From the NCBI GenBank assembly GCA_964244895.1, contig CAXTKV010000102.1, positions 1 to 18,256 of the forward strand: 18,256 bases of DNA. The letters are read 5' to 3'. This document shows, piece after piece, positions 5,469 through 18,256 of this stretch. Within the stretch, counting starts at the first letter, position 1, and every line of letters begins with the position of its first letter. The notes under the pieces are model-generated. The model searched no databases. It was not told the origin of the DNA and saw only the letters and a list, made by a program, of their open reading frames with translations. The stretch is from an uncultured Deinococcales bacterium. Lineage in GTDB: Bacteria; Deinococcota; Deinococci; Deinococcales; JAAFIG01. A program made the position numbers and the translations under genes.

Positions 5469-5523
5469 CGAGAATACCGTCCCGGACAGCGTTTCTTAAA
5501 CGCCGTGCTGGACGGTGTTCTCG
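5469..5523. repeat. REP-like inverted repeat
   Basis: CGAGAATACCGTCC… / …CGTGCTGGACGGTGTTCTCG between convergent genes. Confidence 0.6.
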
Positions 5524-9590: not shown

Positions 9591-9888
9591 GTGAATGTCC
9601 GTTCCCCAATCTTAGAGCGCATCGTTACGGGCGCGTTGCTGACCGTGGCGGGCGGCGTCGGCCTGTGGGCGCTCAGGCCCGCACCCGCGCCCGTCGCGCC
9701 TCGCATTGAACAACCGCGCATCGTCGTGGCCATCAGCGGTCAGGTGGCGCACCCCGGCGTCTACGAGTTGCCGTTCGGATCGCGCGTGTTTGCGGCGATC
9801 AAGGCGGCGGGCGGTTTCAGCGATCGCGCCGACACCGACCTGGTTAACCCCGCCAAACACCTCGAGGACGGCGATCAGGTGCGCGTAC
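9591..9888 (+). pseudogene. comEA: 5' fragment of competence DNA receptor ComEA (N-terminal TM + SLBB domain), truncated by transposon insertion
   Basis: VVAISGQVAHPGVYELPFGSRVFAAIKAAGGFSDRADTDLVNPAKHLEDGDQVRV is the ComEA SLBB signature. The frame stops at an abrupt AT-rich junction where 'VP…' and the HhH domain should follow. Confidence 0.88.
9801..9835 (+). other. PAM (AAG) + protospacer for CRISPR spacer 3 (homing target)
   Basis: 9804-9835 GCGGCGGGCGGTTTCAGCGATCGCGCCGACAC vs spacer GCGGCAGGCGGCTTTAGCCCTCGGGCCGACAC = 26/32; AAG at 9801-9803. Confidence 0.9.
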
Positions 9889-10078: not shown

Positions 10079-10785
10079 ATGACTGTCTCATACCGTTTCG
10101 CGACTGGCGAACCTTTGCTAGAGATGCCCATCTCTGAGCTCAAACAGGTCAAGCTCGCGAATCTGAATCCCATGCGTCGCGCGTGGACGACTCGTTACCA
10201 GGGACACACGCCTGGATTTTTTTCTGCCGCTCCTCAGGTCAACTCGTTTACTACGAGAGTTATCTCGAGCGTCGAGTATTGCTTGTCGAGGACTACCAGA
10301 CAAGGGCGAACTGGGTGATCGACCAACCGTTCCGTCTGCACTTCGAGGGTGGCACCCACGTTCCCGATTTTCTGATGGTCACGGTCGATGGACCCAAAGT
10401 GATCGATGTCCGAAGCCGTGCCTATTTGAATACCACACGCTTCATGGCTGATCGAATCGCGATGGCGGAGGCGATGAACCGAATCGGTTGGTCGTACGAG
10501 GTGCGGTCCGAACCCGATCCTCAGATGTTCGCCAATTTGAATTGGCTGAGCGGTTTCCGGCGACGCCCTCCGGACGTTGAACTGTTCGCTCCTCGAGTGA
10601 TCGACTGCTTGTCGAGTGGTCCGTTGAGTTTCGCACAACTGTTCCATCGGCTCGGAAACGAACTCTTTTCGAAACCCGTCGTCTTTCACCTCCTTTGGCA
10701 CCGGATTCTCGAGGTCGACGTCTACGCACCACTGACAGGCGAAACCCGCGTTGACCTGAGCAAGGTGAAAAGAGTTGAAGCGTGA
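10079..10785 (+). CDS. tnsA: TnsA-like transposase endonuclease subunit, split by a -1 frameshift at T7 (10217-10223)
   Basis: GAGGAGG RBS at 10062-10068. The first frame reads …NPMRRAWTTRYQGHTPGFF and the -1 frame continues FCRSSGQLVYYESYLERRVLL…QPFRLHF…HVPDFL…VIDVR…NLNWLSGFRR…VFHLLWHRIL, a TnsA-like PD-(D/E)xK pattern. Confidence 0.82.
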
Positions 10786-12890
10786 TGTGGAAGATCCAAC
10801 TGAAGGTCGGTGCCCGGTTTTTTGCCGATGGTCGAAAGCACACCGTCACCGCCATCCGCGACGGTTTGCTCCAGACCCGCGACAATCAGGGTGCAATCAC
10901 GCTGATCAATGTCACCGATTTTTTGAGCTTCCCGGATTTCAGGTCGCTGGACAAGGACTCGCCGACGGCATCGTGGCCCTTCACGATGGTCAGTGACGAG
11001 GCGCTCAAAAAGGCTCGAATCCTCGAACGGCACCTTCGAGAAGTCATCACCGGTTCTCCGAGTCCTTACGGCGATCCAGAGCCACTCCCTCCGAAGGACG
11101 CGTACGATCCTCAAACGACGACACTCACTCTTCGCGTGTCGCTTAAAGCGGCTGAACTCGGGCAGAGCGACTCCGCCATCTGGAAGTACAAGCGCCAATA
11201 CGAATCGCACGGTGTAATGGGTCTCGTCGATCAGCGCGAGGTTCGGTACGTCAAGGCATTCGAGCGGATCGATCCACGGATCAAGGACGCCACTGCCAAG
11301 GTGCTCGAAACCGCGAAATCTGAGTCGAAATTGACGAAGTTGATCTTGCGCGAGCGCATCAAACGACAGCTCAGCAAAGATCACCAGGAGAAGATCAAAC
11401 TCCCATCAGTGGCAACACTGAATCGGTACATCGACGCGATCGGCACACCGCTCGGTGTGTTCCAAACCGCCCAGCGACGCAAGTCTGAGCGCAACCGTCC
11501 GGAGCGACCGTTTGGGCGCTTTGAGGCCGATTGGCCGGGCCAGATCGTCATATACGACTCGACGCAGTTGAACCTGTTTGGTCTCGACCCGATCACGCTG
11601 AAATGGGTTCAAATTCAGCTCACCATCGCCCAAGATCTTTACAGCCGCTCCATCGTGGCGTGGCGGTTCACGCCGACCGTACCGAGCGTGGATGCGGCAC
11701 TCCTGCTGTTCGATGTCCTCAGCCCGAAGCGCGCGAAGCGCTCTTGGCACGAGTCGACTCGAGGTTTCTATTTCGGCGTCCCGGACGAGGTCGTGCTGGC
11801 CCTTCCGGACGATGAAGAAAAAGAAACCAGCGAGGAGAAGACAACCGACGATACAGCGCGCATCCCGATGGTTCATCCGGAAACGGTGTTAATAGATCAC
11901 GGGCGCATCTTCGTTAGCGAGGCGTTCAGGCAGGCGTGTCTGCGGTTGGGGATCAGTCTCCAATATGCACGCCGCCGCGCCCCGACGGACAAAGCGATCA
12001 TCGAGACCACGTTCGACTTTGTCAAGGAACACTTCTGCGCGCGCCTGCCCGGTTTCACAGGGGCCAACATCGCGGCTCGAGGCGTCAACGTTGAGAACAG
12101 AGCCGTTTATTTCATCGATGAGATCGAGGAACTGTTCGCGGAGTGGGTGGCGACTGAGTGGCAACAACGTGTTCACGAGGGGTTGTTCCTGCCGGGATCG
12201 CCCAAGCTCGATCTCAGCCCGAACGATGTTTACCGCGAAGGAATCGCGCGCGCGGGGTTCGTATACGTCGTGCCGGATGCCACTTTGTACTACGAGTTGC
12301 TTCCGAGCGAGTGGCGTGTTGTGGGGGACAACGGGGTGTCGGTCAATGGACTGTTTTACGATCACGTGCGGTTGAACGACTACCGTGGTGTGCCTTCGGA
12401 GTACGGTGGAAAAAACTGCGGGAAATATCCGGTGAAATACGATCAGCGCAATCTCGGCGAGATCTTCTTCTTTGACTATCGCGCTACACCGCCTCAATGG
12501 ATCGCGTTGCGCTGGCGGGGAGCGCGGTCTCAACCCATGCCGTTCAACGATCACGCCTTGGCCTTCGCGAAAAACTTGTGCATTGAGCGCCAACTCGACC
12601 CTCGACAACCTGCCGTGCTCGAGGGAGCGCTTCGGTTCCTGTTGGATCGTTGGGATCAGCAGCAGTTTGGGACAGAGAAAGAGAGGAGAGCGATGGTCAA
12701 ACGCGCTGCGAATTTGGCCGCCAATCTTCGTGATCGAACCCGTATGTCAGCAGAACTCCTCCCTCCCGACGAGCCAATCAACTTGGGATTGATCGCTGGC
12801 GAGTTGAACCCTGAAGAAATCCTGGCGTACATAGAAGCCGCGCGAAGTCAGCCGATGGGGGATGAACATGCCAGCATGTTTGATTTCTGA
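10785..12890 (+). CDS. tnsB: TnsB / Mu-type DDE transposase
   Basis: ~701 aa with N-terminal HTH-like segments, candidate DDE triad IYDST…LIDHG…KAIIET and a Mu-transposase-like C-terminal region. The start overlaps the tnsA stop (TGATG). Confidence 0.9.
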   Translation: MWKIQLKVGARFFADGRKHTVTAIRDGLLQTRDNQGAITLINVTDFLSFPDFRSLDKDSPTASWPFTMVSDEALKKARILERHLREVITGSPSPYGDPEPLPPKDAYDPQTTTLTLRVSLKAAELGQSDSAIWKYKRQYESHGVMGLVDQREVRYVKAFERIDPRIKDATAKVLETAKSESKLTKLILRERIKRQLSKDHQEKIKLPSVATLNRYIDAIGTPLGVFQTAQRRKSERNRPERPFGRFEADWPGQIVIYDSTQLNLFGLDPITLKWVQIQLTIAQDLYSRSIVAWRFTPTVPSVDAALLLFDVLSPKRAKRSWHESTRGFYFGVPDEVVLALPDDEEKETSEEKTTDDTARIPMVHPETVLIDHGRIFVSEAFRQACLRLGISLQYARRRAPTDKAIIETTFDFVKEHFCARLPGFTGANIAARGVNVENRAVYFIDEIEELFAEWVATEWQQRVHEGLFLPGSPKLDLSPNDVYREGIARAGFVYVVPDATLYYELLPSEWRVVGDNGVSVNGLFYDHVRLNDYRGVPSEYGGKNCGKYPVKYDQRNLGEIFFFDYRATPPQWIALRWRGARSQPMPFNDHALAFAKNLCIERQLDPRQPAVLEGALRFLLDRWDQQQFGTEKERRAMVKRAANLAANLRDRTRMSAELLPPDEPINLGLIAGELNPEEILAYIEAARSQPMGDEHASMFDF

Positions 12891-14103
12891 CGCTCAGGAT
12901 GACTCGTCCATCGAAGTCCTCAAGCTCGGAACCGCGCTCCCAGTGAAGCAAATCCACGACCGGAGAACGTGGGACGAACACGTGCGCTTCGAGATGATCG
13001 CGAAATCGCCCAGGGTGACCCTTGAGGAGTACAACGCCATGAGCGCACTGCAACAGCGTGAGTCCGATGCCCTGCGCCGACAGTACACAGGGAAACTCGC
13101 CCCCGTTTTCAGCGGTCGGTACAGTCGCGTGTACGACGAGATGTTTCGTATTGCGACCAGCAACATCGATCTCAGCAGTGGCGTTCGAATCGGAGCGGTT
13201 CTCACTGGTCCGCCAACGGTCGGGAAAACGACAACGATCGTTTGGTTTGGGCGTCGGTACGAGCGTCGCAGGCGCGCGATCCATCGTGCACAGTTCGGTA
13301 CGGACGAGTTTGTGCAGGGAGATCCGGAGTGGCTATTTACCCCGGTGATTTACGTTTCCCTCGATGGGACGCGAACCTTCAAAGCCCTGCTGCTAAACAT
13401 CGCCGCCTTCCTCAATATTCCGAAATACGACAAACTGGACGAACTCGGTTTGAAGTCGCAGATCGCCACGTACGCCAACAACTGCGGGGTCAGCCTGATC
13501 CTGATCGACGATATTCATTACCTCCGCACGCAGTTCGTCGGGGCGGAGCCATTAATCAACGACCTCAAGAAATGGATGGGCACGATACCCGCCACCTTCA
13601 TCTTTGCGGGTAACGATTGCGAGCAAATCGGATTCTTTCGCGAGTGGGCGAAAAGCAAGCCCAGTACGGCCTCGCAAACGAATCACCGGTTTGGAAAGAT
13701 CGAGTTACAGCCCTTTGCGATTGACCACTCCCAATCACGGGAACTCAACACGAAGGAACTCGGTGACGTCCTCCAAACGTACGATGACCTCTGCGTGCTG
13801 CTCAATCACCAGTCCGGCGATCTCGCCAAGCTGCTGATGTACATTATTGATCGCACGTCAGGCTACATGGGAGCCATCGTAACCTTGATCAAACACGGTG
13901 CAACTTTGGCGATCGCCAACCGAACAGAGCGATACTCGGAAGCGTTGCTCAATCAGATCTCGCTCGATAATGCTTCTGAGACGGCGCGACCGGACCGAAA
14001 AGCGGTGTCCGTCAACAAGACCAAGCAATCGAGGACTCCAAAGGATCGGAAGCGCAAAACGGCTCAAACCACTTCGCAGGATGGTGAGCCTCCTGCCCGC
14101 TGA
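12862..14103 (+). CDS. tnsC: TnsC/TniB AAA+ ATPase
   Basis: Walker A GPPTVGKT, Walker B LILIDDIH; lies between tnsB and tniQ and overlaps both. Confidence 0.88.
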   Translation: MNMPACLISDAQDDSSIEVLKLGTALPVKQIHDRRTWDEHVRFEMIAKSPRVTLEEYNAMSALQQRESDALRRQYTGKLAPVFSGRYSRVYDEMFRIATSNIDLSSGVRIGAVLTGPPTVGKTTTIVWFGRRYERRRRAIHRAQFGTDEFVQGDPEWLFTPVIYVSLDGTRTFKALLLNIAAFLNIPKYDKLDELGLKSQIATYANNCGVSLILIDDIHYLRTQFVGAEPLINDLKKWMGTIPATFIFAGNDCEQIGFFREWAKSKPSTASQTNHRFGKIELQPFAIDHSQSRELNTKELGDVLQTYDDLCVLLNHQSGDLAKLLMYIIDRTSGYMGAIVTLIKHGATLAIANRTERYSEALLNQISLDNASETARPDRKAVSVNKTKQSRTPKDRKRKTAQTTSQDGEPPAR

Positions 14104-15232
14104 TTCCTCCTACCGCCTTCCCCTGCGGGTAATCGTGCCCGTTGGTGTGCCCTTGTCTGTCGTGCTCGAGCAAACGGCGGGCGCCTTGGAACTGAGCGTT
14201 TCCGAATTGTTGGGTTGGATCGGCGTCCCACGAATACCCGATCCACCGAGCAGAATTGACGACCCGCCGTGGCTCAATCCAGCTCAACTCGCCAGGTTGG
14301 CGCAGATCACGGGCGTTCCTGAAAAGAGCATCACGAACGCGAACCTCTCCTTTTTTGATGCTGCGCTCGCGTCATCCAAGCGGCAAAGGGCAACAGTTTC
14401 TGCATCCCGTCGAACGCACGCCGCCATCATCGGTGCGCTGCGGGTGAGACACTCGACGCGTCTTTGCCCTCGGTGCCTCGCCGAGGGGCGTCAGAAGAGG
14501 TTGGCGTGGCGAACGGGCTGGCTGTTCGCTTGCACTCGGCATCGGGTGCTTCTCGTTGCGACCTGCCCGCGCTGCGGCCTTCCTTTCGATGCTCATTGTC
14601 GTCAATCACGGGTTCCAGATCTCAGACGTTGCGACAACCACCCGGCCAAGGGGGAGAAGTGCGAACAACTCCTGTCTGATATTCCGACGGTCAACATTGA
14701 TGGTTTTCCCGAACTGATTCGATCGCAAGGACGTCTCGAGGCGGCGTTGACGGGACGAACGCTACGGTTTGTCGGTCAGCGCACCACACCGGTCGAGTAC
14801 CTCTACGGCCTTAAAGAACTGGTTGATGTTCTCGAGGCCGTTGCGGTCGTTGGTGAGCTCGGCGAGCTTCCGCCCGAGGTATTGAACCGTTTCGAGGCTC
14901 AGGTTCGCTCTCGCGCAGTCCAGTGGCAGCGACGCAACGAACACACGCCCGATGGCCTATCACCCGCGCCCTTTTCGAGTGAAAGCGACATCGAACTGCT
15001 CTCGGCCGTGGTTTCAACAGCGCTCGAGATCGCTGACTCGAAAAGCTTGCAAGCGGCGGAAGATCGAATGATGTATTTGATCGAATCGTGCTGTGCGGTT
15101 GCCGCAGACGAACCGCGACGAATTCTGAACGCTATTACACGCCATGTACAGCGGCAGCGGCGACCACGGCTGTACGTGGCCTTTCGCGAGTTGTACGACC
15201 GGGTGCGTCATCGGTACAAACTCTACGAGTAG
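14081..15232 (+). CDS. tniQ: TniQ family target-selector protein (~383 aa)
   Basis: N-terminal LPLRV.. motif and TniQ zinc-binding pattern CPRC…W…WLFACTRH…CPRC…C…C. Start chosen at ATG 14081. Confidence 0.88.
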   Translation: MVSLLPADSSYRLPLRVIVPVGVPLSVVLEQTAGALELSVSELLGWIGVPRIPDPPSRIDDPPWLNPAQLARLAQITGVPEKSITNANLSFFDAALASSKRQRATVSASRRTHAAIIGALRVRHSTRLCPRCLAEGRQKRLAWRTGWLFACTRHRVLLVATCPRCGLPFDAHCRQSRVPDLRRCDNHPAKGEKCEQLLSDIPTVNIDGFPELIRSQGRLEAALTGRTLRFVGQRTTPVEYLYGLKELVDVLEAVAVVGELGELPPEVLNRFEAQVRSRAVQWQRRNEHTPDGLSPAPFSSESDIELLSAVVSTALEIADSKSLQAAEDRMMYLIESCCAVAADEPRRILNAITRHVQRQRRPRLYVAFRELYDRVRHRYKLYE

Positions 15233-15255: not shown

Positions 15256-15840
15256 ATGCATGAGGTCAAGATTGTTCTCGACCGTCGCTCACGATTCGTT
15301 CGACGTTGCCTTGATCAACCGCACGTGTTCCATAAAGTCCTGGCAGGCATGAATCCTGAAAAAACCAGAATTCTCTGGAGGTTGGCGAAAGGCAACCTGA
15401 TCGTCCGATCTGTACGACCGCTTGATTGGAAAGATCTCGATGCTCGTGACCCCAGTTTCGGTCAGCGGAACCACGTGGCATTTGATCCCAACAAACCCGA
15501 GGGTACCGCATACTTTTGCAACGTGTTCGCCTACGCTCGTAAAAGGCCAGTGGTCGGACCGTGGCAACCCAAAAGCCCCGACGAGTACCTCGAGTGGTTC
15601 GAGTTGCAGGGAAACAGATATGGGTTCGACGTGCTCGAGAGCGCCATCATCCGCCAGGAGCCCTACCACGTTGAGACGAGTTCCATGCCGCTGACCGTGC
15701 TGCCAGTGGAGTTGATGGGAGCGATCCGCATCACGGACAGCGAGAAATTCCGCGCAGCCCTCGAAGAAGGGATAGGACGTTTGCGCGCGTTCGGATGTGG
15801 GCTGATGTTATTGCGACCAATCCAAGGTCTGCCATCGTGA
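15256..15840 (+). CDS. cas6e: Type I-E crRNA endoribonuclease Cas6e (Cse3/CasE)
   Basis: GGAGG RBS, N-terminal PHVFHKVL and ILWRL, G-rich loop GIGRLRAFGCGLM; 194 aa. Confidence 0.88.
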   Translation: MHEVKIVLDRRSRFVRRCLDQPHVFHKVLAGMNPEKTRILWRLAKGNLIVRSVRPLDWKDLDARDPSFGQRNHVAFDPNKPEGTAYFCNVFAYARKRPVVGPWQPKSPDEYLEWFELQGNRYGFDVLESAIIRQEPYHVETSSMPLTVLPVELMGAIRITDSEKFRAALEEGIGRLRAFGCGLMLLRPIQGLPS

Positions 15841-15886: not shown

Positions 15887-16098
15887 GTTTTTCCCACGCC
15901 TGTGGGGATCTGCCGGATCGAACTTTCGCCCTTTACGAATGACCTGAGTTTTTCCCACGCCTGTGGGGATCTGCCGGGTTCGCGCACCTATCAGGTCGTC
16001 GCTGAGGGGTTTTTCCCACGCCTGTGGGGATCTGCCAGCGGCAGGCGGCTTTAGCCCTCGGGCCGACACATTTTTCCCACACCTGTGGGGCTCTATTG
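15887..16098 (+). CRISPR. Type I-E mini-array: 4 repeats (29 nt, GTTTTTCCCACGCCTGTGGGGATCTGCCG) and 3 spacers (32 nt)
   Basis: Repeats start at 15887, 15948, 16009 and 16070 (61-nt period) with a CCCAC/GTGGG hairpin. Spacers are 15916-15947, 15977-16008 and 16038-16069. The last repeat is degenerate. Confidence 0.95.
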
Positions 16099-16209: not shown

Positions 16210-17382
16210 ATGAATCTCTTGAGCGATGCGTGGATTCCGACCAGTGCTGGCACGGCCAGGGTCACGGAACTTCTCGAGGCACCACGAAACCGCAACATCG
16301 TGCTATGCGGAATGCAGTACATTGCCGTTCTTCGTCTCTTGTTGGCCATTTGCTACGACGGTGGAGAAACCAGTCGGGGTCTCCTCAAAAATCGAGCTGT
16401 TCAAAAACGCACGCTTCGCCAACTGGAACCCTGTAGCTCGGCTTTCGATCTTTATCAAGGCTGCTGGACGTGCGCGGATTTGACTGGCAGTCCTGGCTCT
16501 CTCGCTCGCCTCGCGATGGGCGTACCGGCACGCAACAATCGGGTATTTCACGTCCATGCACGAGACGATCAACCCACCCCCCGATCCGAAGCAGCGGTTG
16601 CCTGCGATCTGCTGACATTCCAGCTCAGTGCACTGGACTTTGGGAACAGCGCCACCGGCCCGCGCCATCACAGTCCGTGCGCGACGGCGGCCCTCGGAAT
16701 CGCCATCGGAGGCGATCTGCTCGAGACCTTGGCCTTGAACCTGGTGCCGGATTCCGTGCCCCAAAAACCCAAGTGGAAGCGACAGCCGAATGTTCAGGTC
16801 GATTTTGTCAACCAAAACCATGCTCTCCCGTCGAGTCTGGCGGAGCGTTACACCTGGGTGGCGCAAGCGGTGCGGTTCGGAGACGGCGGTGTGGTGACCG
16901 CTCGCGGGTTCAAGCTTGACGCGACGGGCGATCCGATGACGGCCACCGTCGCCGTCAAAGAGGGGCGTGAGTTCGCCTCGAAGGCCATCCGATCCAGCGC
17001 GTGGTTGACGGGTTGCACATTACTCGGTCTGAATGCGCGGCCCGCCGCAACGTTGGAACACGCCCGGCGGCTCGGAATCGAGCACCGCGTTCGGGTGATC
17101 GCGCAGGTCAACGATCGGCGGTATCCTGCTGTGCTGGTCGAAACCATAGATCGGTCTTTCCCGAGCGCGTCGCTGGACACCTCGCTCGAACCGCAGGTCT
17201 GGAAGGTCCGCCGGGAGCTCGAACGCACCGTGGGTCAGGACGCATCATCGATCTTCTTGTCTTACCTCGACGATGTGGCGCACGAGGGATCCCAAGTTGA
17301 TCCCCGCGCGATTCTGAGGCGAACGCTCGAGGATCTCGGGGCACGAGCCCTGCTCCGCAAAGCCGAGGGGTGGCTCGCGTGA
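16210..17382 (+). CDS. cas8e: Type I-E large subunit Cas8e (Cse1/CasA), short (390 aa)
   Basis: GGAGGT RBS; Cse1-type start MNLLSDAWIP, AVLRLLLAI, GDLLETLALNL and RYTW. Confidence 0.82.
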   Translation: MNLLSDAWIPTSAGTARVTELLEAPRNRNIVLCGMQYIAVLRLLLAICYDGGETSRGLLKNRAVQKRTLRQLEPCSSAFDLYQGCWTCADLTGSPGSLARLAMGVPARNNRVFHVHARDDQPTPRSEAAVACDLLTFQLSALDFGNSATGPRHHSPCATAALGIAIGGDLLETLALNLVPDSVPQKPKWKRQPNVQVDFVNQNHALPSSLAERYTWVAQAVRFGDGGVVTARGFKLDATGDPMTATVAVKEGREFASKAIRSSAWLTGCTLLGLNARPAATLEHARRLGIEHRVRVIAQVNDRRYPAVLVETIDRSFPSASLDTSLEPQVWKVRRELERTVGQDASSIFLSYLDDVAHEGSQVDPRAILRRTLEDLGARALLRKAEGWLA

Positions 17383-17390
17383 GGTCAATT

Positions 17391-17816
17391 ATGGACTCGT
17401 ACATCACCTACTTGCAGTCACTGCGCCCAGACCAGTTGAAACAAATCAGGGCGGCCTGGCGCGTTGGTGCTCGTCGAATCGAGGAGGCGCACCCCGCCAT
17501 CGCTGGCTGGACGAGGCATCGACCGTTGCCGCACCTCATCGCGGCGGGTGTCTTTTCGAGCCATCCCCGAATCGGCATGACGCCCCTCGTGGTGGCGGTG
17601 CGGGATCGTGTTCGCGAAAAAGCGCTTCATCACGCGCTCGAGGGAAGCCTCGCTCACCTCGAGGACGTTCTCCGGGAGTGGGTCAGGTTTGTGCCCGACC
17701 AAACAGCGTTGGATTGCGATCGCTTATTTCGAGATCTCTGCGGTTGGGATCACCCAAAACGACCAGTTCAGGACCGCTGGCGGCGCGAATTCTATGGGAG
17801 GACGCATGAAAATTGA
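17391..17816 (+). CDS. cas11: Type I-E small subunit Cas11 (Cse2/CasB)
   Basis: C-terminus LDCDRLFRDLCGWDHPKRPVQDRWRREFY is the Cse2 signature; lies between cas8e and cas7. Confidence 0.85.
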   Translation: MDSYITYLQSLRPDQLKQIRAAWRVGARRIEEAHPAIAGWTRHRPLPHLIAAGVFSSHPRIGMTPLVVAVRDRVREKALHHALEGSLAHLEDVLREWVRFVPDQTALDCDRLFRDLCGWDHPKRPVQDRWRREFYGRTHEN

Positions 17817-18256
17817 GATTCATATCATCCACTCCGTACCGACCTCGAGACTCAACACGGATCGTAACGGGCGCCCCAAAACCATCATTTACGGCGGCTA
17901 CAAACGCGCGCGAATCTCGAGCCAGGCGCAGAAGCGGGCAGCTCGAATGTTCACGGACGAACACGGTTTGATCGACGCGTCGCAGCAGGCGTATAGATCT
18001 CGGTTGATCCCGCAGAAGGCCATCGAGGCGCTCCGAGACAACGACACCGACGAAACAACAGCCACCCTGTTGGTCACGAGGGCTTTCGCGGCGCTTGGGA
18101 TGAAACTCAACGACAACGGGCAGAACGAGTACATGCTGTTTCACAGTCACCGCGAACTCCATGGCTTCGTTGCAGCGATCCGCGAGCATCGAAAAATACT
18201 GCTCAAAACCCGCACCGAAGCGGGCGGCGATAAAAAAGTGCAGCAGCAGAAGTTTC
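17806..18256 (+). CDS. cas7: Type I-E backbone Cas7 (Cse4/CasC), 5' part, runs off window
   Basis: Not in the ORF track. Translated by hand from ATG 17806 (GGAGG RBS): MKIEIHIIHSVPTSRLNTDRNGRPKTIIYGGYKRARISSQAQKRAAR, open to the window end. Confidence 0.93.
   Translation, partial: MKIEIHIIHSVPTSRLNTDRNGRPKTIIYGGYKRARISSQAQKRAARMFTDEHGLIDASQQAYRSRLIPQKAIEALRDNDTDETTATLLVTRAFAALGMKLNDNGQNEYMLFHSHRELHGFVAAIREHRKILLKTRTEAGGDKKVQQQKF

Follow-up and report, generated by a model that had tools for sequence, protein, structure and literature searches.

In the type I-F3 CASTs (Petassi, Hsieh and Peters 2020), TnsABC and one TniQ are found together with a Cascade that lacks Cas3 and Cas1-2, and a short array ends with a spacer whose chromosomal match lies about 48 bp away from the end on the tnsA side. 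The homing guides of these elements carry mismatches, and every sixth position falls on wobble bases. The wobble register, its rationale in the flipping out of every sixth base by Cascade, and the 48-bp distance are all stated in that work (Petassi 2020, 10.1101/2020.07.02.184150). In the 2025 classification (PMC12669027), the Tn7-like CASTs are given as I-F3, I-B2, I-D, I-C and IV-A, while I-E5 is described as lacking TniQ and having Cas3.

Type I-E systems have been linked to transposons in several ways. The I-E5 telomeric CAST of Streptomyces (10.1101/2024.11.13.623437; PMC12669027) combines a type I-E Cascade with TnsB and TnsC and is without cas1-cas2; as described, it also lacks TniQ, its Cas3 is intact, a telomere accompanies its single end, and a protospacer at a fixed distance is not seen. 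In Rybarski 2021, the only candidates connected with I-E are non-Tn7 ones, a 2024 review (PMC11656645) names I-E among the captures by Tn7-like transposons without detail, an I-E CAST subtype is listed in PMC13598128, and I-E CASTs lacking transposition proteins are mentioned in PMC8464060. The term "I-E" occurs zero times in the main texts of PMC11406308 and PMC10293859. No description of a TniQ-containing type I-E CAST was found in the literature searched, which covered few subscription papers.

Tn7-like insertions that break a gene for natural transformation have also been described, namely in the I-B1 CASTs with a comM crRNA (PMC11406308), in Tn6022 with TnsF (Faure et al. 2023, PMC10293859) and in the AbaR islands (PMC11441513). 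Another such gene is comEA, which encodes the DNA receptor for transformation (PMC12378983); "comEA" has zero occurrences in the main text of Faure et al. (PMC10293859).

The window, i.e., the whole stretch of 18,256 nucleotides that was analyzed, is a contig (CAXTKV010000102.1) of an uncultured Deinococcales bacterium (assembly GCA_964244895.1). It is proposed, with a probability of about 0.8, that spacer 3 of its mini-array is the homing guide of a Tn7-like, Cas3-less type I-E CAST; the mismatches of this guide are, somewhat less certainly, divergence from a donor allele. Spacer 3 is likely to be a homing guide because its match in comEA lies 53 bases from a Tn7-like split of that gene. The locus shares with the I-F3 CASTs the features listed above, but differs from what is described for them in its type I-E effector (Cas8e, Cas11, Cas7e, Cas5e and Cas6e), 29-nt repeat and AAG PAM, in an array that lies within the operon between cas6e and cas8e, and in its Deinococcota host. 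In addition, each element of the family has its own home gene, and the window element and that of relative G002 split this gene instead of sparing it. A type I-F effector (Cas8f/Cas5f, Cas7f and Cas6f, with an I-F repeat) is absent, and all Cas genes match type I-E families. Unlike I-E5, the element has both TnsA and TniQ, two ends, a target-site duplication and a fixed distance between protospacer and end, and no cas3 is present beside the Cascade genes. Unlike the comM-targeting elements, it is inserted in comEA, and this target is reached by a type I-E guide.

Gene content of the element

All features of the element lie on the forward (+) strand, in the order tnsA-tnsB-tnsC-tniQ-cas6e-array-cas8e-cas11-cas7-cas5e. 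The transposition genes form one operon with TnsA, a DDE TnsB, an AAA+ TnsC and TniQ, as in Tn7-like elements, although tnsA is frameshifted in this copy. The tnsA gene (10079-10785) is spread over two frames, of which the 3' frame scores above the NF033179 cut-off. The frame breaks at a run of seven T (10217-10223), and this may be a mutation, a slippage site or an assembly error; tnsA is continuous in four relatives, and unlike tnsA, the other core genes of the element each align in one frame. Because tnsA is frameshifted, this copy may no longer excise cleanly. The transposase gene tnsB (10782-12890) encodes the residues D259, D372 and E408, which are invariant in six elements. It is followed by tnsC (12862-14103), whose ATPase has Walker A and B motifs, and by tniQ (14081-15232), which encodes a protein of about 383 aa with the PF06527 domain and cysteine clusters that are conserved in the alignment.

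The Cascade genes start with cas6e (15256-15840; PF08798, TIGR01907), in which His26 is invariant and the Gly-rich loop is conserved. Downstream of the array, a compact cas8e (16210-17382) encodes a protein of 390 aa that belongs to a separate clade. Its predicted model (pLDDT 88.7) matches the Thermus thermophilus CasA structure PDB 4f3e (E 8.5e-19, TM 0.75), from which it differs by being about 100 residues shorter. Next are cas11 (cse2; 17391-17816), with a PF09485 match at the cut-off, and the 5' part of cas7e (17806-18256), which runs on to contig C235 (55-nt overlap) with cas5e and cargo. No cas gene was seen in the 7.4 kb after cas5e. The Cascade genes are thus accompanied by a short array and by neither cas3 nor cas1-cas2 in the assembled element, as in CASTs, the interior of the element being partly unassembled. 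With Cas8e, Cas11, Cas7e, Cas5e and Cas6e, a 29-nt repeat with a 7-bp stem and an AAG-type PAM, the system has the features of a type I-E Cascade. Canonical type I-E Cascade, known from E. coli and Thermus thermophilus, also has a 7-bp repeat hairpin with a 4-nt loop (PMC11300857), but its Cas8e is about 470-540 aa in length, compared with about 390 aa and a clade of its own here. Also unlike the canonical system, no cas11 is present between cas8e and cas7 in four of the six elements of the family, and in one element it is fused.

The host DNA of the window contains palindromic intergenic repeats that form one family, at 90-141, 990-1047, 2917-2961 and 5470-5523.

Insertion site and element ends

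The element interrupts comEA. The 5' half of this gene (9591-9888, + strand) encodes a membrane anchor and an SLBB domain (PF10531), and the 3' half, with the helix-hairpin-helix domain (PF12836), is located on contig C225; together the halves align end to end with eight full-length orthologs. The last 5 bp of the 5' half, CGTAC (9884-9888, + strand), form the target-site duplication, which starts 48 bp past the protospacer and is repeated on C225 after an ACA end. [quoted passage not shown] It has two short motifs in common with the far end, and from their sequence these are likely to be TnsB sites. On C225, an insertion-sequence end that is common to several contigs is followed by the matching end closing with ACA, CGTAC and the remainder of comEA. 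The TGT...ACA ends and the 5-bp duplication are those of a Tn7-like element; the link between C225 and the window consists of the duplication and the two parts of comEA and does not rest on an overlap, and the interior between C235 and C225 is unassembled.

The terminal spacer and its match in comEA

The mini-array (15887-16098, + strand) consists of three 29-nt repeats, a degenerate fourth repeat and three 32-nt spacers, and its repeat forms a hairpin with a 7-bp stem and a 4-nt loop. Spacer 3 (16038-16069, + strand) is the last spacer and is flanked by the repeat at 16009-16037 and, at 16070-16098, by the degenerate terminal repeat. Within the window, the best match of this spacer other than itself is found at 9804-9835 (+ strand), inside the 5' half of comEA, with 26 of 32 positions identical. 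The PAM AAG (9801-9803, + strand) lies directly upstream and is the Lys codon preceding the AAGG motif. A self-targeting spacer with a PAM is thus present at a fixed distance from the element end, as is seen in CAST homing.

The mismatches are located exactly where the first-pass annotation had placed them, at spacer positions 6, 12, 15, 19, 20 and 24, with positions 1-5 and 7-11 being perfect. The two peptides it had given were also reproduced: the spacer reads AAGGFSPRAD and the target AAGGFSDRAD, with positions 19-20 giving P and D, respectively. Since spacer position 1 is codon position 1, the mismatches at 6, 12, 15 and 24 are third codon positions, and all four are synonymous, as had been noted.

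In the whole 5.1-Mb genome, 9804-9835 is the top non-self match of spacer 3, and the runner-up reaches 24/32 with the PAM TGA. When 5000 shuffled spacers were compared with the 300 bp preceding the element end, none reached 25 or more matches, the highest count being 24, and the binomial expectation is about 0.0025 per genome; the match between spacer 3 and comEA is not due to chance. For spacers 1 and 2, the genome offers no convincing target, the top matches being 22/32 and 24/32, without an AAG PAM. No match to spacers 1-3 was found in viral contigs (for spacer 3 with the 6n positions masked), and a plasmid search with the three spacers gave chance-level matches only, so that a better match in a mobile element, which the first-pass annotation had named as a possible objection, was not encountered in these sets. 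In a small share of a single DNA sequencing run, one contig spans 9671-9821 and is identical to the window, and none crosses the junction or the array.

Two further observations were made at this site. Spacer 3 can form a 6-bp hairpin at 16046-16065, which is followed by a T run of the terminal repeat and was flagged by a terminator scan; this terminator-like hairpin is not significant because 0.6 are expected in shuffles. The repeat preceding spacer 3 ends in A rather than G (16037); the relatives G002 and G004 have this A as well, whereas G010 and G013 do not.

Relatives and homing geometry

A profile search with Cas8e identified the same compact protein in five of the 18 other genomes of the family, with at least 461 bits, compared with at most 124 bits in the rest of the 363 genomes of the order. 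All five relatives have the order (tnsA-tnsB)-tnsC-tniQ-cas6e-array-cas8e-cas7-cas5e; in G011, tnsA-tnsB lies on a contig of its own. The six elements form one branch in the TnsB tree (support 100/100), and in the Cas8e tree their proteins form one long-branch clade along with further database proteins; at least 17 relatives of Cas8e are available as proteins only, with no genomic context. One Cas8e-like fragment (29% identity, on a 2.3-kb contig) was excluded from the element count. No Cascade operon was found by tblastn with the Cas proteins of the element in 14 related Tn7-like loci, some of which are cut by contig ends, and no further elements were found in metagenome contigs, viral contigs or genome contigs searched with TnsB alone.

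In four relatives, the last full spacer matches a target next to the element end, with AAA or AAG as the PAM. The targets are rtcB in G013 (29/32), rqcH in G010 (24/32), the antisense strand of comM in G002 (20/27) and tRNA-Glu in G004 (26/32), and the distances from the protospacer 3' end to the element end are 53, 51, 53 and 52 bp, respectively. The PAM-to-end distance is 80 bp with the 27-nt guide of G002, a single case, versus 83-85 bp for the others, which is what measuring the site from the guide's distal end would give. The insertion in G002 splits comM. The duplication was confirmed at both junctions for the window element and for G002, while no far end was found for G010 or G013, the candidates for the latter having been rejected since the end motif was missing. 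In G004, the tRNA-side end and the cas genes are on different contigs, and the same end recurs beside the cas genes. Two spacers of G011 have matches in relatives, at the beginning of one conserved gene, and G011's own copy of that gene region is absent from its assembly. The genes, both ends, the duplication, the target and its distance are established for the window element, and the geometry is repeated in four relatives.

Several side observations concern the family. On contigs G002:C55, G004:C12, G010:C404 and G011:C513, at most 10 bp separate cas8e and cas7 and no cas11 match is present, and G013 has a cas8e-cas11 fusion. In the three cas11-less relatives for which an end was found, the ends begin with TAT or TAG, not TGT. 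At G004:C12:104500-104540, two element ends stand back to back with four bases between them, and these bases are the ones preceding the end at tRNA-Glu on C11; a tandem insertion or a circle junction may be present here. Similar element ends, possibly remnants, are located 50-60 bp behind tRNA-Glu at G010:C38:3738 and G012:C26:35584, with no adjacent tns genes in the examined stretches. At locus L140 (G018:C278, 1277-4347), tnsA and the beginning of tnsB, both of the same kind, immediately follow another gene, which is presumably Ro60/TROVE-like, and no Cascade genes were found in this 57%-complete genome. The window's own genome has a second CAST-like arm, of type I-C, at L002 (G000:C161, 3-5620), with a tniQ broken by an insertion-sequence end, a cas5c-cas8c fusion, cas7c and a mini-array. 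A detached partial repeat at L002 has a 24-nt spacer that matches the 3' end of the adjacent ABC permease gene at 17/24 with the PAM TTC, 66 bp from an ACA end.

Mismatch pattern and codon register

For the five guides with targets, the pooled mismatches are found at 14 of 24 positions of the 6n class, 12 of 25 of the 6n+3 class and four of 106 elsewhere. Thus, 26 of the 30 mismatches are at 3n positions (26/49 versus 4/106 at other positions), where one of the 30, position 27 of the G002 guide, is possibly part of the repeat; pooled p-values overstate this pattern because the six elements are kin. Spacer 3 alone is marginal, with P = 0.06 for four of its six mismatches at 3n and P = 0.034 for three of six at 6n. 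The first-pass annotation had described the mismatches as falling at every sixth and at wobble positions. The wobble part, with a period of three, is borne out, whereas the 6n class is not enriched relative to 6n+3 (p = 0.57), and a period of six was rejected as a sufficient account of the mismatches.

It had further been suggested that the guide is phased so that unread positions coincide with wobble bases in a conserved SLBB motif, allowing homing across species. The register is real in all four coding targets, but it can arise by codon phase alone. In the long genes of the genome, AAG occurs in the favorable phase in 53% of cases on the sense and 71% on the antisense strand, and AAA in 46%; given this codon phase of AAG and AAA, a favorable register in four of four targets has a joint chance of about 0.09, and the register was rejected as too weak a proof of selection. 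Homing across species is plausible for close kin but not for the whole family, in which the comEA orthologs match at no more than 17 of 22 non-wobble positions and only one of 14 has the AAG PAM. All eight close ComEA orthologs keep the Lys that supplies the PAM, and for seven of the eight only two non-wobble mismatches would have to be tolerated, as many as in the host, so that close kin could be served by this guide. That every sixth base is flipped out by Cascade is established knowledge, and the three of six spacer 3 mismatches on such positions would cost nothing. The guide would work across close kin, and not across the family, because four mismatches are at third positions, two affect a variable residue and three are flipped out.

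Origin of the mismatches and alternative explanations

The mismatches of spacer 3 probably represent divergence from the allele of a donor, either a very close relative or an ancestor of the host. The idea that the spacer derives from a foreign comEA allele is supported family-wide, in that guides appear as snapshots of alleles, while the comEA donor itself was not found. A pattern search with the 6n positions masked and up to three mismatches in 364 Deinococcota genomes yielded nothing except spacer 3 itself and the comEA target of this spacer; the comEA of the host is the single match, and the donor search proposed by the first-pass annotation gave no better candidate. The comEA-region loci of 29 relatives match spacer 3 at no more than 22/32. 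For comEA itself, the allele origin is supported indirectly. At the Asp/Pro site, the eight close ComEA orthologs have Ala (five), Pro (two) or Val (one), and both Pro-bearing orthologs differ from spacer 3 at two other residues. The relatives provide clearer cases. The comM guide of G002 matches the comM of the window's genome, which belongs to another genus, at 22/27 and that of its own host at 20/27, and against the former all non-wobble positions match and the PAM is AAG. The two G011 guides are near-synonymous versions of one gene site: they have nine differences, encode the same peptide save for Ile/Val and include a complete serine-codon switch, and both states of the differences occur in natural alleles.

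A possible, though clearly less favored, explanation is that spacer 3 was once a perfect copy of the host comEA and that the guide later drifted at tolerated positions while the broken comEA decayed. It would fit the host allele being the only match in 364 genomes, as well as the Thr that spacer 3 encodes and that is found only in the host among nine close sequences. It would also fit Ala being the commonest residue at the D/P site (five of eight orthologs), as an Ala codon would be one change from the Asp codon of the host and one from the Pro codon of the spacer. Guide drift also occurs, because some mismatches in the relatives cannot or may not be alleles: the change at position 9 in G010 is a stop codon, those at position 12 in G013 (Met to Ile) and G002 (Lys to Asn) alter the amino acid, and the one at position 24 in G004 breaks a T-stem pair of tRNA-Glu. 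However, drift of a non-coding guide leaves unexplained why 6n+3 positions are mismatched so much more often (12/25) than non-third positions (4/106), and it does not account for the G011 serine-codon switch and Ile/Val pair with both states being natural, nor for the comM guide matching a foreign allele better than that of its own host. Selection is a different and improbable source of the mismatches: the last inference of the first-pass annotation was that they may limit self-cleavage, i.e., that they were selected so that a host type I-E Cascade-Cas3 spares the chromosome. All five guides with a found target do carry mismatches, in I-F3 a privatisation of such guides has been described (Petassi 2020), and one of the six carriers, G011, alone holds a second, canonical-like Cas6e and Cas8e. 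On the other hand, the only cas3 and cas1 matches of the window's genome are at one locus on contig C36, which appears type I-C-like from its gene order and 37-nt repeats, a reading based on the sequences rather than on an HMM scan. This genome, which is 91% complete, yielded no second Cas8e or Cas6e, and no second Cas6e turned up in five of the six carriers (assemblies 82-94% complete). Shielding from Cas3 is unsupported because the single cas3 detected in the host belongs to the type I-C-like locus and a second Cas8e or Cas6e was not detected in this incomplete assembly. In addition, escape from interference usually needs something other than a near-perfect seed, and the seed of spacer 3 is nearly perfect.

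With regard to targeting, Cascade could be cargo, with TniQ alone choosing the site and the spacer repressing comEA or guarding the site. Related Deinococcota Tn7-like elements indeed have long TniQ/TnsD proteins and no Cascade, but this arrangement is very unlikely here, given five unrelated targets that all lie 51-53 bp from the guide 3' end and the single 27-nt guide whose end is shifted with respect to the PAM, since a protein selector would not track the spacer. An origin of spacer 3 in a phage or plasmid, with a merely accidental resemblance to comEA, has a probability close to negligible; SLBB motifs are widespread, with non-ComEA SLBB proteins existing, but the spacer has no viral-contig match and only chance-level plasmid matches, shuffled spacers never reached 25/32 near the end, and the PAM and the distance agree with those of the relatives. 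A homing guide that carries the imprint of a donor allele is therefore the preferred reading of spacer 3.

Proposed mechanism

Based on the repeat fold and the conserved His, Cas6e would cleave the hairpin repeats to release the crRNA, with which Cascade would bind comEA at the AAG PAM. TniQ would then bridge Cascade and recruit TnsC, as suggested by I-F3 and by the conserved adjacency of tniQ and cas6e, and TnsAB would carry out the insertion about 48 bp downstream, again as in I-F3. We infer that the insertion is RNA-guided. Splitting comEA may also benefit the element, as judged from the comparison with the comM islands (PMC10293859; PMC11441513).

It is likely that the six elements represent an unclassified CAST subtype: a Tn7-like clade of uncultured Deinococcales in which a compact, Cas3-less type I-E Cascade would have been co-opted via TniQ, with four of six elements having no cas11 in the operon. 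In such a subtype, the home would be changed by swapping the terminal spacer (comEA, comM, rtcB, rqcH, tRNA-Glu and a sixth conserved gene), the site would be measured from the distal end of the guide, and competence genes would be knocked out in an RNA-guided manner.

Significance

The wobble register of guides is already known from the I-F3 CASTs, and the main interest of the locus goes beyond this register to a family of type I-E CASTs that contain TniQ and keep a fixed distance. Among type I effectors, the type I-E Cascade is the one studied best, and its coupling to Tn7 would therefore give a new scaffold for programmable integrases. This coupling would also add an independent case of TniQ docking on an effector. 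The different homes, the 27-nt guide and the two allelic guides make spacer acquisition, insertion distance and the need for Cas11 testable. Lastly, by disrupting comEA under RNA guidance, the element would provide another instance of mobile elements being in conflict with natural transformation.
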